Shown here: piece by piece, positions 9,366 through 21,346 of the stretch
Layout: each line of letters begins with the position of its first letter
Numbering within the stretch: position 1 is the first letter of the stretch
Virus record (IMG/VR): IMGVR_UViG_2703718838_000011
Source of the DNA: a virus
Taxonomy: Duplodnaviria > Heunggongvirae > Uroviricota > Caudoviricetes
Length of the DNA stretch: 43,299 nucleotides
Reading direction: 5' to 3' (one strand)
Made by a program: the position numbers and the translations under genes
The notes under the pieces: model-generated
The model's input: only the letters and a program-made list of their open reading frames with translations
Told to the model about the DNA's origin: nothing
Database searches by the model: none

Positions 9366-10868
9366 TTAAGCTCCTGTTGATTCAGCCCGAGTGCGGAACT
9401 GATTGAGCAGCGCGAAAATGCGCAACTGGTTCATGAGGGTTCCCGGCCACAGCACATCGACGCGGTTCGGATTTTTGGCGTTCTGCTCGACGATGATATT
9501 TTTTGCGAATGCCTCCGCATCCTGCGCATAACCGTTCCATACCAGAGTCTGGTACTCGGCAATCTGATCGGCCTTGATAATGTTTGGCGTGACGATCGCC
9601 GCGCCAGGTGCAAATCGGGTTCCATCCGCAGCAAGCTTCATACGGCCAAACTTGCTGGTCACCGCTGTGCGCAGGTAGCGGGTCACAAACATCAGGCTGA
9701 ACAGCGTCTCCACTTCCAGATAACTGTCATCTGCATCGCCATAGCTGTTTTTCTGGTAGGTGGTGATCAGGTTTTCAATGCGCACCGTGCCATCGTCATC
9801 GACCGTAAATGTCGAAATGCCGCTGTACAGCAGATTGTTACGCTCGGTCAGCTCAAAGCGATCCTGCAGTTCTGGCGCAAGTACCCCCTGAACGGCGAGC
9901 GACTGTAGCGGGCGGCCCGGATCATTACGCAGACTCACCGCCGCTGCGCCGGTGTAAGCTGCAGACCATGCCCAGGAAGGGGACGGCGATTTATTTACGC
10001 CCAGCAGGGTCTCATGCTGGTTATTGCGCAGCTCACCTTTGGTACCGAGCTGGGCGTAAGTCCCGGTTGTGGTACCAAAGGAATGGCCATAAAGCTGCTT
10101 GTCCCATGCCCAGCGACCGCCAGTGTCTGACAGGAACGCCTTCATCACATTCAACGAGGTTGTATCGTCGTAAGGGTTGATGATGAAATCGAATGTCCGA
10201 TCCTGCAGGTTAGCCAGCGCGCCGGTAATATCCGGAGCCCCGGCTCCGTTAGACATAGCAGTAATCGTCAGTTCCAGGCCTGCAGGTGTCGACTCGCCTC
10301 CCGGTAAGCCGAGGAAGTTCAGGCGAATGTCGATTCCGTTACCCGTAGCACCAAGGTTCTTCGCGGTCAGGGTTACGGTATCCGTAGCCGCGCTGGCGGT
10401 TACAGGTAGCGTGGTTTTTGCGTTAATCGCCGCGGCCAGAGAGGTGGCGATCGCTGCCACCGTATCTGTTGCCACAACGGTCAACTGAATGCGTTCACCA
10501 GCAATATAAAGGGAGATCACTCCGGTTGCCGTCGGTGCGCTGCTCACTTTAATGGTGCCGGTTGCAGCCACCATGGAATCGGAGTCTTCCTCCAGCGGCA
10601 GGATCCAGACTTCGGCTGCGGTATCATTTTTCTGATACGCCGCCATCATAGCCTGCAGAATTCCCCCTTTTCCTGTCAGCTCACCGACGGTATCCGAAGA
10701 GGAAACTCGCTGCGGAATACCTGGGGGGGTTGAGCCGGTACTGAGCATCCCACCGATAAGCAGGGTGCGCTGCGTGGCAGTGGCGTTATTCGCCATTGAG
10801 TTATCAAACTCAACGAAGAAAAGCCCTACCCGCAGGTTATCGGGAACACGAGCGAAAGGTACGGTCAT
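9366..10868 (-). CDS. contractile tail sheath protein
   Basis: 500-aa ORF, ATG at 10868; size and position typical of Mu/P2-type sheath. Confidence 0.85.
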   Translation of the reverse strand: MTVPFARVPDNLRVGLFFVEFDNSMANNATATQRTLLIGGMLSTGSTPPGIPQRVSSSDTVGELTGKGGILQAMMAAYQKNDTAAEVWILPLEEDSDSMVAATGTIKVSSAPTATGVISLYIAGERIQLTVVATDTVAAIATSLAAAINAKTTLPVTASAATDTVTLTAKNLGATGNGIDIRLNFLGLPGGESTPAGLELTITAMSNGAGAPDITGALANLQDRTFDFIINPYDDTTSLNVMKAFLSDTGGRWAWDKQLYGHSFGTTTGTYAQLGTKGELRNNQHETLLGVNKSPSPSWAWSAAYTGAAAVSLRNDPGRPLQSLAVQGVLAPELQDRFELTERNNLLYSGISTFTVDDDGTVRIENLITTYQKNSYGDADDSYLEVETLFSLMFVTRYLRTAVTSKFGRMKLAADGTRFAPGAAIVTPNIIKADQIAEYQTLVWNGYAQDAEAFAKNIIVEQNAKNPNRVDVLWPGTLMNQLRIFALLNQFRTRAESTGA

Positions 10869-17268: not shown

Positions 17269-19392
17269 TTATTTCGGCAGGAGTTGCGATATTCGCTTAC
17301 GTTTGACCGGCGCTGGTTCTTCAATAACCGCACCCGGCAGCTCGTAATTGATTTTTTCTTCCTGTCCAACTGGCGCTGGCAGGAACTTATCCGGATCGGC
17401 TTCGAGGTTGGCGGCCCGGACGTTGAGTTTTAACCCCATATGTTTGAGACCGCACAGCGCGGCATAGCTGTAAACGAGGCAGTCAAGCGCTTCGTTAGCT
17501 CGTCCTGGTATTGCTTCCCAGATACTGTACCGCTGCCCGGAAATGACTTTGTAAACCAGTCGCTCCGCCAGCAGCTGATTGAAGTACCCGAGATCGCGAT
17601 CGTCAGGAAAATGCATATAACCCGCAGCGGCGGCGCCAGGTTTGGGTGGCTCAAGATGCAGGCGACCGCGTATCACGTCTTTCGCTGAGTTAACCCCCAG
17701 AATGACAGGGCGGAAACTGGCTTTGCTTTTCGATGATGGTCGTTTGGTCGGCCAGACAGGATTGCGTTTACCTCCCTGTGCAGACTCCCCCTTAATTGCC
17801 CAGACACGACGGCCAAGACGCTCTTTGGCGAATTCGTATACCTTCTGCGTATGGTGGCCACCGGAGTCCATGCACGTTGCCATGATATTCAGGCCGCGCC
17901 CGTCACCACGTCGCCAGATCTGTTTCAGGTATGCATCCAGTCGCTTCCAGGGTTCTTCCGTCTCAAGGTCACCATAAATAACGTCATGCGCGACCGACCA
18001 CGATTCTTCATCTCTCCCCCAGCCGGTGATCGTAATTTCGAAGCGATCGTCCTGGGTATCAACTCCAGCTGTTAACAATGCCACCCCGTCCGGAACGACG
18101 GCCGGAAATATTTCCCGGCGCGCCAGCAGAACATCAACAGGGAGCTGTTTCCCATGATTAGGTCGGTGCGGAAGCCCCATCTGGGTATTCCACCACGCCT
18201 GTTCCTTATCCGGATCGCCCTTCGCATCGATATATTTTTTCGCAATATCCGACGGCTTATCTTTTTGCCAGGGGCTGAAAAGCTTGGATGCCTGGTACCC
18301 CGCGTGGTGGTTATCGACTGCCTCCTTTCCACAGGAGGGGCAGATTGCGCGATAGACCGCATGCCGTTCCGACTCTGACCATTGCCAGACCTTTTCAACG
18401 CTGCCCTCGTCTGCCGCCCGCCAGGCAAGGTCATAATCCATCAGCGGTGAGTGCCGCTCCCCGCAGCACTCAAATGGGCGCGTCTGATGCCATCGAATAG
18501 TGTGCAGAGCTCTGAGGCGCTGTCCTTCGGACCAGCCACTACCACAGCATTCGCAATAGAGCATCGCCGATTTAGTCAGGTGTTTATCTCCCTCTTTCGG
18601 CCACTGAACGTGTTTGAAAAAGTCGGGGAACTGGCGGTGGCCACAGTGCGGGCAAACCACAGATGCCCGGCGCTGATCGGAGTCGGCGTAGCTGTCAGCA
18701 ATGCGGCTCTCATCCTCCACCGTCGGCGAACAGGCGCGTACAGACAGCCAGGTCAGGCCAAATGTCGCTGTACGCTCTTCGGCCAGCGCAATTGGATCGC
18801 CTTCGCGGGTTATCGGGTACTTGTCCACTTCATCCGCCAGCAGGACACGAATCGGACGACGCGCAAGGTTATCAGGGCTACCAGCACCCGCCAGCGCCAG
18901 AAATCCGCCAGTGAATGCCTTGTAAAGAATGGTTTCTTTCGAGCTTTTCTGTTTCGAATCACCGATGATTTTACGCAGTACCGGCGTCACCCTTACCAGC
19001 GGGCTAATACGCTCTTTCGAAAACTGTTCAGCGGCTTCTTCTTTCGGCTGCAGCAGCAGTATCGGACAAGGATCGAGGTGGGCAAAATAGCCAAAAAGGT
19101 TTTCCAGCAGTGCTGTCTTCATCAACTGGGTACAGCACATTACAGTGATGATATGAACCCCGGACTCCGTCGCGGCAAGCATCGGTCCGCGGGCAATTTC
19201 TACCGTCGATGTTTCCCAGTTTCCCGAAGTGCTCCCAGCCTCTTTTGCCAGCTTACGATAGTCATCTGCCCACTGCGGCACACTGATACGCGGCGGGGGT
19301 GTCCAGCCTTTGCGGACGCTTAATTCAAGACGCTCAATCTTCTGCCGGGTTAAACTCTGGCTCTCCGAGGACTGAGATGTGTTTGTGGACAT
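17269..19392 (-). CDS. terminase large subunit (lambda gpA family)
   Basis: 707 aa from ATG 19392 (track start 19398 is TTG); C-terminal NEALDC motif region as in lambda gpA. Confidence 0.9.
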   Translation of the reverse strand: MSTNTSQSSESQSLTRQKIERLELSVRKGWTPPPRISVPQWADDYRKLAKEAGSTSGNWETSTVEIARGPMLAATESGVHIITVMCCTQLMKTALLENLFGYFAHLDPCPILLLQPKEEAAEQFSKERISPLVRVTPVLRKIIGDSKQKSSKETILYKAFTGGFLALAGAGSPDNLARRPIRVLLADEVDKYPITREGDPIALAEERTATFGLTWLSVRACSPTVEDESRIADSYADSDQRRASVVCPHCGHRQFPDFFKHVQWPKEGDKHLTKSAMLYCECCGSGWSEGQRLRALHTIRWHQTRPFECCGERHSPLMDYDLAWRAADEGSVEKVWQWSESERHAVYRAICPSCGKEAVDNHHAGYQASKLFSPWQKDKPSDIAKKYIDAKGDPDKEQAWWNTQMGLPHRPNHGKQLPVDVLLARREIFPAVVPDGVALLTAGVDTQDDRFEITITGWGRDEESWSVAHDVIYGDLETEEPWKRLDAYLKQIWRRGDGRGLNIMATCMDSGGHHTQKVYEFAKERLGRRVWAIKGESAQGGKRNPVWPTKRPSSKSKASFRPVILGVNSAKDVIRGRLHLEPPKPGAAAAGYMHFPDDRDLGYFNQLLAERLVYKVISGQRYSIWEAIPGRANEALDCLVYSYAALCGLKHMGLKLNVRAANLEADPDKFLPAPVGQEEKINYELPGAVIEEPAPVKRKRISQLLPK

Positions 19393-19903
19393 GTTCAATC
19401 AGCACCTCTGTCATCCTGTCCGCCGGTACATCCAGATCAGCAGCCATTAGCGGCGCCACCCTGGACGGCCAGTTAAGCCAGGCATCACGCTGTTGGCGAA
19501 AGGCGTTGAATAAAACCTCCTCGGCTGCTGTCAGCTCAATAAGCTGGCCGCTGTCTTTTTCATACTGCAGCTTTGCCTGCAGGGCCATGTAATTCTCGCG
19601 GATACGTCCCGCTTCCTCTCTCGAAAGATCTGCCCCTTCAGTGAGCATTATCTGGCGGACAGTTTTATTGATTTCATCACCGTCATCATCGTTATCGCTA
19701 ACGACGGGAGTTTTCTTTTTCTTCGCGTTCGAGGCGCGCGGGTCTTTGCCATCGCGGTTTTTCTTCAATGCCGCATCGCTGGCCTCTACGTCAATCAGGT
19801 CTCCGTCCATCACAATGAAGCGCCCGGCTTTAATCCACCGACTAATTGTTTTGCGATCCACACCTGAATGTTGTGCGTACTGACTCTGGTTCATCGTGGT
19901 CAT
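19334..19903 (-). CDS. terminase small subunit (Nu1-like)
   Basis: 189-aa ORF immediately upstream of terminase large subunit and downstream of the cos-like repeat array. Confidence 0.6.
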   Translation of the reverse strand: MTTMNQSQYAQHSGVDRKTISRWIKAGRFIVMDGDLIDVEASDAALKKNRDGKDPRASNAKKKKTPVVSDNDDDGDEINKTVRQIMLTEGADLSREEAGRIRENYMALQAKLQYEKDSGQLIELTAAEEVLFNAFRQQRDAWLNWPSRVAPLMAADLDVPADRMTEVLIEHVHKHISVLGEPEFNPAED

Positions 19904-20051
19904 GGGACATCACCTGGGACATTTTCTGGGGTGGGACATTCGCCTGGGACATTTTTGCCATGTCCCACCAGAATGTCCCACTGGAATAAACTGGAATAGC
20001 CAGAGCTGGCGAGGTGTCCGTAATGATCGCCAGAGGTGGGACATGGGACAC
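19903..20051. repeat. cos-region repeat array: six direct and two inverted copies of TGGGACA(T/C)
   Basis: Direct copies at 19903-19910, 19915-19922, 19932-19939, 19945-19952, 20037-20044, 20044-20051; inverted ATGTCCCA at 19960-19967 and 19973-19980; first copy abuts the Nu1 start codon. Confidence 0.5.
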
Positions 20052-20193
20052 AAATCTGAAAGTTGTAGCTAGGAAAACACCGCGGCGCGCAATGCCCGTA
20101 CCTTACAAAAGTCTCAGGAAGGACCCATTTTTTTATTGGCTTCGACCATTCGCTCCGACTATGATTATTCCTATTCAATACAAGGAGAATGTA

Positions 20194-20697
20194 ATGGGTA
20201 ACAATATAATCAAAATAACTTTCGTAGCCGCAGTGCTGGCATCACCAATTGCTCATGCCCAGTGGGTAACTAATACTGAAGATGACCTTTTCTCTGGTGG
20301 TAAGAAAGCAATGATGCTTGGCGAGGTTTCATCCGACAATGGCGCCATTGTGTTTGACTGCACTAAAGAAAAGCTATCGGCGGCATACGTTGAAATGGAT
20401 AAAAGCACCGAATCACTATCAGAGGTACCAATGGACCTGATAATGAAGGTCGACGGGAATACCGCAGTGAAGCTCGATGCTACCCTTTCAAGACGTAATG
20501 TTCAGAGCCTCCAGATTCAATCGGATGACGCGGACCAACTAAAAACAGTGCTTAAGCAGCTTCAGGGGGCGAAATCCAAAGTGTTAGTTGGTGTGCAAAC
20601 AAAGGATGGCGGAAACCAGCATTCCATGTCAGCCAATGTTTCTGGATCGACAACTGCAGTAAACAGCTTCATAAAAGCTTGCGAAATTAACTTATAA
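20194..20697 (+). CDS. secreted/periplasmic protein of unknown function (moron)
   Basis: ATG 20194 with SD AAGGAG at 20182-20187; N-terminal signal peptide MGNNIIKITFVAAVLASPIAHA; candidate promoter TTGGCT-N18-TATGAT at 20136-20165; opposite strand to flanking phage genes. Confidence 0.55.
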   Translation: MGNNIIKITFVAAVLASPIAHAQWVTNTEDDLFSGGKKAMMLGEVSSDNGAIVFDCTKEKLSAAYVEMDKSTESLSEVPMDLIMKVDGNTAVKLDATLSRRNVQSLQIQSDDADQLKTVLKQLQGAKSKVLVGVQTKDGGNQHSMSANVSGSTTAVNSFIKACEINL

Positions 20698-20707
20698 GTT
20701 ACTGCTT

Positions 20708-21346
20708 TTATTTTGCCGTCCTGATGGCTTCTGCTATCGCCTGATTTAAAGCAGACGGTAGCAGTGCGTTCGCCATGGTACGGGCCCTATCCATATACCC
20801 CAGCACTGGAGTCACAGGTAGCGCATCACCAAACCGGATCAAAAGCTTTGGAGAACGCTGTTTGCGTTTCGGTCTTCGCGTCCCGTTAGCGGAACGTTTG
20901 GCCCGTCGCTTCTTAGCTTTCATCGGCTTCTTACGCTGCCAGACAGCGTTAACGCCATCAACCTCACCTACGAATACATTTTCCTTTGCTTTAAGCTGTG
21001 AGAGCTTATTACGCGGCATGTTGCCGTATTTGTTTAGCTTGACGTTCTTGGGGTTCAATAGCGCTTGGCTATTGAGCTTATGCTCTCCACCTAACTCGAA
21101 TGGTTCCAGATAACCAGCCGCGGTATCGCGGACAAAAACCTTTGCAGTCAGGTTGTTCTTCCTTGCCGCCACCGAACCAACTGATTTAACGGTAAACGGT
21201 GTCGGGCTCTCCAGATGTCGTTCGAACGCTGTTTTCTGTGCCGTTTCTATTTGACGAACAACTTTTGTCATAGCTAGTGCTGTAGCATATGGCACCTGCT
21301 TTTGTACCTTCTTTAATTGCTGAGAAAGGTCTTTGAGTGTTGCCAT
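20708..21346 (-). CDS. hypothetical protein with Lys/Arg-rich segment
   Basis: ATG 21346 with SD GGAG; 212 aa; basic stretch KKPMKAKKRRAKRSANGTRRPKRKQRSPK. Confidence 0.45.
   Translation of the reverse strand: MATLKDLSQQLKKVQKQVPYATALAMTKVVRQIETAQKTAFERHLESPTPFTVKSVGSVAARKNNLTAKVFVRDTAAGYLEPFELGGEHKLNSQALLNPKNVKLNKYGNMPRNKLSQLKAKENVFVGEVDGVNAVWQRKKPMKAKKRRAKRSANGTRRPKRKQRSPKLLIRFGDALPVTPVLGYMDRARTMANALLPSALNQAIAEAIRTAK

Follow-up and report, generated by a model that had tools for sequence, protein, structure and literature searches.

What is the role of a dense cluster of short repeats lying immediately ahead of the terminase genes of an Escherichia coli prophage? The stretch of DNA analysed here (43,299 bp, referred to below as the window) is such a prophage, present in approximately 60 of 5,426 complete genomes (approx. 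1%). It holds eight exact matches to the octamer TGGGACAY, every one of them within positions 19903-20051 (table 1), in agreement with an earlier sequence-only reading, which had counted six direct and two inverted copies in about 150 bp overlapping the start of the small-terminase gene. Shuffled sequences predict 2.8 matches per whole window and approximately 0.0097 per 149 bp, and the Poisson probability of at least eight octamers in 149 bp is 1.9e-21 (approx. 8e-17 once corrected for all possible start positions). The bare heptamer occurs elsewhere in the window only twice, at 10100 and 34255. A position matrix of the repeat unit, built from 253 copies in related loci, gives a conserved unit of 8 bp, RTGTCCCA, whose first position is A in 82% and G in 17% of copies and whose flanks carry little information. 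Variants of this unit with one mismatch number 34 outside the array in the whole window, versus approximately 58 predicted by shuffles; this deficit may correspond to an avoidance of stray sites for the small terminase (TerS), or to an effect of codon usage.

Table 1. Features of the terminase and cos region, in window coordinates. Positions preceded by a plus sign are counted from the predicted cut, +1 being window position 20095.
Feature	Position	Strand	Remarks
Large terminase TerL, gpA type	17269..19392	-	GpA_ATPase 2.8e-64, GpA_nuclease 2.2e-78
Small terminase TerS, 189 aa	19334..19903	-	phrog_57 'terminase small subunit', E 1e-36
Probable cosB-equivalent array, eight RTGTCCCA putative small-terminase sites	19903..20051	-	
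TGGGACAY, six copies	19903, 19915, 19932, 19945, 20037, 20044	+	last copy is TGGGACAC
TGGGACAY, two copies	19960-19967, 19973-19980	-	
Four distal direct copies (8-mers 19945-19952, 19932-19939, 19915-19922, 19903-19910)	19903..19952	-	+145, +158, +175, +187
Two opposite-orientation copies	19960..19980	+	+116 and +129
Proximal tandem pair GTGTCCCATGTCCCA, copies 1-2	20037..20051	-	7-bp spacing; +45..+59
Conserved linker GCGGTGTTTTCCTAGCTACAACTTTCAGATTT between cosN and repeats	20052..20083	-	analogous to lambda I2
Predicted cosN cohesive end GCATTGCGCGCC, 12 nt, 5' overhang	20084..20095	-	identical to mapped BZS1 end
cosQ-like heptamer GGGTCCT	20120..20126	-	identical to lambda heptamer; 19-nt distance to TACGGG in both

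Since the terminase genes are carried by the minus strand, the array lies upstream of the TerS open reading frame. Base 19903 is common to the last octamer (in the terminase direction) and to the terS ATG (19903-19901), and an AGGTGA Shine-Dalgarno sits between the last two distal copies. Within repeat pairs, the start-to-start spacings are 7, 13, 13 and 12 bp. A 56-nt spacer separates the proximal pair from the inverted copies, and the latter form, together with copies 5 and 6, a 22-nt imperfect palindrome (19931-19952 / 19960-19981). Adjoining the inverted copies, positions 19980-19998 contain a direct repeat, ACTGGAATA-A-ACTGGAATA (TATTCCAGTTTATTCCAG in the terminase direction), which is nearly invariant in E. 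coli-type loci carrying the same class of array (class A, described below) and missing in divergent class-A loci; it could be a site for a host factor.

On the minus strand, terS is followed by terL, gpW and the genes of a lambda-family portal, an S49 protease, a decoration protein and the major capsid protein, and a Mu-like contractile tail module is also found among the neighbouring genes. Positions 19300-20700 have no close relative detectable by megablast among 50,697 phage records; Citrobacter phage phiNP and Serratia phage vB_SspM_BZS1 (hereafter BZS1) were the only ones recovered, by blastn with the cos core or by tblastn with TerS, and the TerL of the window is 49% identical to that of BZS1. 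Exactly at the edge of cos, on its upstream side, sits an insertion of approximately 580 bp (20128-20707). Present in approximately 22 of the 63 E. coli genomes with this cos and absent from the rest, this insertion is therefore a moron; its plus-strand ORF (20194-20697, 167 aa, phrog_19473, function not assigned) has a signal-peptide-like N-terminus and a promoter-like site of its own at 20136-20165. Beyond it, a minus-strand gene (20708-21346) encodes a protein homologous to BZS1 p72 (phrog_1924, annotated 'minor tail protein'), which in all long-form relatives is located directly upstream of cos and far from the tail genes, an odd placement also remarked on by the BZS1 authors.

Comparison of positions 19850-20200 with E. 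coli genomes by blastn gave three types of match. In the first, the whole region is kept (84-100% identity); the second consists of prophages sharing only window 20052-20127 (92-93% identity), and the third of elements with partial similarity. In every case, homology among relatives stops at approximately 20127. Inspection of the loci showed that window 20052-20127, a segment of 77 bp, constitutes a conserved module to which different repeat arrays are attached. In the phage collection, the module is found only in phiNP and BZS1, and in the latter the match extends into the end of the linear record, where a 12-nt left cohesive end is annotated. According to the BZS1 paper (PMC7556043), 5' cohesive ends GCATTGCGCGCC were obtained from virion reads by PhageTerm, and were verified against the prophage junction using sequenced phage ends. 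The same 12-mer is embedded in the window between a conserved TACGG and a conserved GCGG; in the terminase direction, the sequence runs through GGGTCCTTCCTGAGACTTTTGTAAGGTACGG, GCATTGCGCGCC and GCGGTGTTTTCCTAGCTACAACTTTCAGATTT and then into GTGTCCCATGTCCCA. The cut position is thus placed by homology to one phage, and the lambda alignment leaves a 1-nt ambiguity of register.

The joined ends of lambda, when aligned with the window, share with it the GGGTCCT heptamer, the 19-nt gap to TACGGG, the left cohesive-end bases and the right flank CGCGG(T)GTTTTC(C/G)CTA, so that the window possesses a genuine lambda-type cosQ-cosN core. In lambda, GGGTCCT is cosQ (bp 48473-48479). The sequence-only reading had taken the octamers as the likely terminase recognition site and packaging origin. 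Comparative evidence supports such a role for the region, but cosN itself lies approximately 33-44 nt beyond position 20051, outside the span to which that reading was confined.

Related loci were retrieved by scanning IMG/VR with the 14-mer ACGGGCATTGCGCG. This yielded 120 loci, of which the 57 with the full flanking signature were kept (the other 63 being set aside as presumed chance matches); together with the E. coli, phiNP and BZS1 loci, they form a family of about 60 loci with 53 distinct cos-to-ATG regions. The GGGTCCT heptamer is kept in the 57 IMG/VR loci. The common layout comprises the cosQ-like element, the cosN 12-mer, a linker of approximately 33 nt (TAGCTA...TTTGAAATTT) and two tandem repeats, followed by a non-conserved spacer of 55-80 nt, two inverted copies and between three and five direct copies. 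Throughout the family, the first repeat pair lies at a constant +46/+47 from the cut and the last repeat abuts the terS ATG. In the long form, there are 6-9 copies and the terS ATG lies at about +190 to +230, whereas the short form (BZS1, phiNP and their relatives) displays 3 copies, no inverted copies and an ATG at +74. A comparison with related cos regions, which had been proposed as a check of the initial interpretation, thereby turned out in its favour: the layout is conserved in about 60 loci and the 12-mer is identical to the mapped BZS1 end.

Although the layout is shared, the motif is not, as three repeat classes emerged: class A (RTGTCCCA, the class of the window), class B (RGGTAACA) and class C (TTCACACTT), with TGTCCCA, GGTAACA and TTCACAC as their respective core motifs. 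The inverted arrangement is also encountered in long-form loci of classes B and C. Invariance across 22 distinct sequences of class A is seen in 49 of the 56 columns covering repeats but in 46 of the 92 covering spacers (Fisher p = 3e-6), a test that counts columns rather than independent events because the sequences are related.

The class of the repeats is mirrored by the N-terminus of TerS. All 27 distinct class-A loci encode a TerS with GV(D/N)RKT(I/V)xRW(I/V/M), all 14 scored class-B loci one with GVSRKTxTxWKxRGW (a fifteenth, L059, has a miscalled GTG start and belongs to TerS class b by eye), and both class-C loci one with GMSRRxFYNWESK. Thus, repeat class and the first approximately 45 residues of TerS agree with no exception in 43 distinct loci, these counts including related sequences and representing loci, not independent evolutionary events. 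The approximately 50 N-terminal residues of TerS track the repeat class, whereas its C-terminal half tracks TerL. Repeat class does not depend on the C-terminus of TerS, on TerL, on cosN or on the upstream gene; classes A and B are each found with either of two unrelated TerS C-terminal halves, and this free assortment with C-terminal types implies several recombination events.

One relative (L006) illustrates where the exchange takes place. Relative to the window, its cosQ-cosN-linker is 91% identical, its TerL protein 92%, its upstream p72-like protein 78% and the 3' half of its terS 81%; terS codons 1-49 are 58% identical and the repeat array 50% (i.e. unalignable). The exchanged unit is exactly the repeats plus the TerS N-terminal domain. 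The same pattern defines the cosB/Nu1 specificities of lambda and 21 (PMC4669245). More generally, in the specificity variants lambda, 21, N15 and Monarch, cosQ and cosN are likewise conserved and cosB changes together with the recognition helix of TerS, although the specificities of lambda, 21 and N15 come from helper-packaging genetics and those described here from covariation of sequences alone. The coexistence of long and short arrays in the present family also recalls the 'complex' (lambda/Monarch) and 'simple' (N15) forms of cosB described by Feiss et al. (PMC4669245). As a separate observation, the p72-like upstream protein (phrog_1924) was considered as a candidate binder of the repeats and ruled out, as it does not covary with the motif class.

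The ORF following the array had been called 'Nu1-like' in the sequence-only reading, a designation that holds for fold and function but not for family membership by profile. Indeed, TerS has no match in Pfam at E <= 0.01, Phage_Nu1 included, and a sequence search of the PDB returned only spurious RecA-concatemer matches. Its approximately 230 homologues, nearly all named 'hypothetical protein', originate from Enterobacter, Klebsiella/Raoultella, Citrobacter, Serratia, Yersinia, Photorhabdus, Pantoea, Salmonella and others. By BLASTP, residues 4-34 align with residues 3-33 of lambda Nu1 at 29% identity (weak E-value, 0.023), and owing to this pairwise alignment the positions discriminating the TerS classes fall in the stretch matching the lambda recognition helix. 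In lambda, residues 20 and 24 of this helix set the lambda/21 specificity (PMC4669245).

An AlphaFold2 model of TerS built with 42 homologues (mean pLDDT 69, and 76-80 in residues 1-40) displays an N-terminal domain of beta-alpha-alpha-beta-beta-alpha type (beta, H6-13, H17-25, beta, beta, H39-50), a disordered basic linker and long C-terminal helices. The best Foldseek matches in the PDB were the Pukovnik Xis (4j2n), BldC-DNA complexes (6ama, 6amk) and the DNA-binding domain of lambda gpNu1 (1j9i; 55 columns, rmsd 3.0, TM 0.50 on the target), with further matches to the terminase DNA-binding domains 7lwr and 7lw0 and to 6hn7. Their probabilities range from 0.75 to 0.99; with so small a domain and a model of only moderate confidence, the E-values remain weak (0.2-1). 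The N-terminus of TerS thus models as a winged helix-turn-helix of the MerR/excisionase type. Its best structural matches, the MerR-like winged helices of Xis and BldC (4j2n, 6ama), belong to proteins acting in excision or transcription and not in packaging. Xis/BldC-type proteins bind closely spaced direct repeats cooperatively. By analogy, TerS could multimerize head-to-tail on the array.

The cos module is also carried by two satellite-like islands that do not possess a large terminase gene, and one of them is devoid of terS as well. The latter (L134; NZ_CP027550.1, approx. 1656.3-1672 kb) lies beside thiM, and its cos (L005 2856-3094) consists of cosQ-cosN and seven repeats of the TGGGACA class, followed downstream only by short ORFs, with no terS and no ORF of >=100 aa. 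The array is therefore not merely an expression signal for terS. The cohesive-end 12-mer of this island is the variant GCATTGCGCGAG, and its genes include an HTH regulator, Icd-like, DUF4222, primase, SSB, ProQ/FinO and PerC, the integrase side being outside the stretch read. From its sequence, L134 looks like a satellite copying the class-A packaging signal of window-type phages.

The second island (L133; NZ_CP128594.1, 3813.6-3830.5 kb, between hpt and gcd) encodes an integrase, AntA/B, Icd-like, DUF4222, a toprim primase and SSB. It associates the shared cosQ-cosN core with class-C repeats (GTGTGAA/TTCACAC) and has a TerS-like gene of its own (L007 2201-2785), of which the N-terminal domain alone matches phrog_57; L101 in IMG/VR is of the same type. 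Given this gene content, L133 may redirect the TerL of a helper through its private TerS. Both islands resemble the cos-carrying PICIs of E. coli (EcCICFT073 type) in gene set and in bearing a cos, here that of the family, at one end. However, described PICIs use a lambda/phi80-type cos and the Rpp adaptor (PMC6739421, PMC9026076), whereas L134 copies class-A repeats without terS and L133 brings its own TerS-like gene together with class-C repeats.

Taken with the architecture of the locus, its conservation, its homology to a mapped cos and the fold class of TerS, all of which are shown by the present analysis, the covariation makes it very probable that the array is a cosB equivalent, i.e. 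the putative TerS recognition site of a lambda-type cos. The order of elements is that of lambda (cosQ-like GGGTCCT, cosN and linker, TerS sites, terS start), with a gpA-type TerL and a TerS with a winged-HTH N-terminus in both. The Nu1 ATG of lambda is at 191 from the cut and the terS of the window at +193, and in both arrays one subset of sites is in the opposite orientation. The earlier proposal that the repeats occupy the position of the lambda R-sites with a different motif is likewise sustained: the first TerS site of the window lies where R3 is found in lambda (about +46 to +59), and RTGTCCCA is unlike the R sequences. Indeed, no similarity to these sequences was found in RTGTCCCA or in classes B and C, and the array region is unalignable with lambda cosB. 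Where lambda has three R sequences of approximately 16 bp, the window has eight copies of an 8-bp unit; unlike in lambda, the last of them overlaps the terS start codon, and the cohesive end differs after its first bases.

BZS1 and phiNP are closer in some respects, as they possess the same cosQ-like element, 12-nt end and linker and a homologous head module, but differ by having only three repeats, of class B (GGTAACA), and a TerS whose N-terminus is of class b and whose C-terminus is unrelated. In the accessible part of the BZS1 paper (PMC7556043), no repeat array is described, and literature searches with the 12-mer GCATTGCGCGCC, and with the octamer together with 'terminase', retrieved no account of it either. 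Accordingly, the cosB class gains an array whose motif and layout were not found described, even if the kind of element is an ordinary one.

A further difference from lambda concerns DNA bending. None of the spacers of 39 distinct loci, which separate the proximal repeats from the distal ones, contains the exact IHF I1 consensus WATCAANNNNTTR, and with <=1 mismatch 5 of the 39 match versus 2.7 expected; the spacer of the window is likewise devoid of the consensus. The hairpin mechanism of lambda (R3-I1-R2) is therefore not simply transferable. In the cosN-proximal linker, by contrast, a site similar to the IHF consensus is present at +31..+43 with <=1 mismatch in 12 of 39 distinct loci versus 1 expected; the corresponding site of the window (20054-20066) has 2 mismatches. 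Possible means of bringing proximal and distal sites together are another bending protein, intrinsic A-tract curvature or multimerization of TerS in the manner of Xis and BldC.

From these elements, we infer that TerS binds, exactly where the nicks fall, in what stoichiometry and geometry the complex assembles and what the spacer does, as follows. Several winged-helix domains of TerS would bind the 8-bp RTGTCCCA sites and would anchor the gpA-type TerL on the conserved cosN approximately 45 bp away, the 56-nt spacer looping or bending so as to unite the proximal pair with the distal cluster. TerL would then make staggered nicks generating the 12-nt 5' end GCATTGCGCGCC (window 20095-20084), and the terminase would remain on the repeat-bearing end and dock on the portal. 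Packaging would run towards terS and terL, to lower window coordinates, and end at the next cos, where the terminating cut would be directed by GGGTCCT (cosQ-like) and cosN. The repeat motif and the TerS N-domain would together constitute an exchangeable specificity module, with at least three versions (TGTCCCA, GGTAACA and TTCACAC).

A bolder extension of this scheme, which we regard as conceivable though rather doubtful, is that these phages use a different mode of cos recognition altogether, with TerS winged helices polymerizing head-to-tail on the 8-bp repeats as Xis and BldC do, and wrapping or looping the DNA without an IHF hairpin. The repeats and the N-domain would in that case be a plug-in cassette, in at least three alleles, swapped among temperate phages of many Enterobacterales genera and used by satellites that either copy the repeats of the helper (L134) or bring their own TerS and private repeats onto the shared cosN (L133, L101).

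Several explanations other than packaging can be considered. The repeats might be operators, serving transcription of the terminase or late operon, or its autoregulation by TerS or another regulator, instead of packaging. The last copies do flank the Shine-Dalgarno and overlap the start codon, and the nearest structural relatives of the TerS N-domain include BldC and promoter-regulating excisionases. However, no sigma-70-like promoter was found on the terS strand within 19700-20800 (the sole promoter-like site there faces the plus-strand moron), the array is always at a fixed distance from cosN, island L134 retains array and cos with neither terS nor another ORF of >=100 aa downstream, and no covariation links the upstream gene to the class of the motif. 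Operators instead of packaging signals are thus improbable, although the array may have a secondary autoregulatory role beside packaging.

Still less credible is a structural explanation, according to which the inverted copies would fold the terS leader RNA into a hairpin, or the DNA into a cruciform, and the structure rather than recognition of the octamer would be functional. Minus-strand RNA 19895-20060 is indeed predicted to fold at -57.4 kcal/mol (z = -3.0), copies 3-6 building a long hairpin, and the inverted arrangement recurs in the long-form loci of classes B and C. Yet the arms of this hairpin are the repeats themselves, and the spacers within them (TTCTGG versus GGCGAA) pair at 3 of 6 positions in the window and at 2 of 6 in L002 (by eye). 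Moreover, single-arm mutations (TGGGAAA in L020) are uncompensated, four of the eight copies are outside any hairpin, the short-form BZS1 and phiNP possess no inverted copies, and the region matches no Rfam family, a sub-threshold miRNA hairpin being the only hit. Finally, iterons or centromere-like repeats for replication or partition, which the short direct repeats with helical-turn spacing do resemble, or a chance low-complexity cluster, are the least probable of all, since the O/P-like replication genes belong to the early region, at a distance of >10 kb, the motif tracks TerS and no replication protein, and chance is excluded at approximately 1e-16.

The interpretation of the array as a cosB equivalent leaves the understanding of cos packaging unchanged, the mechanism being a textbook one. 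It does allow one to assign where packaging starts, in which direction it runs and where the genome is likely to end, for a prophage family carried by approximately 1% of complete genomes of E. coli and also by many other Enterobacterales. Three interchangeable classes of repeats and TerS domains on a constant cosN represent a natural experiment like that of lambda, 21 and N15, and the 8-bp sites should be easily mutated. The repeat classes also predict which phages mobilize which cos-bearing satellites, and this bears on the transduction of genes carried by islands. What appears most worth following is the three-allele specificity cassette, together with its use by satellite-like islands.
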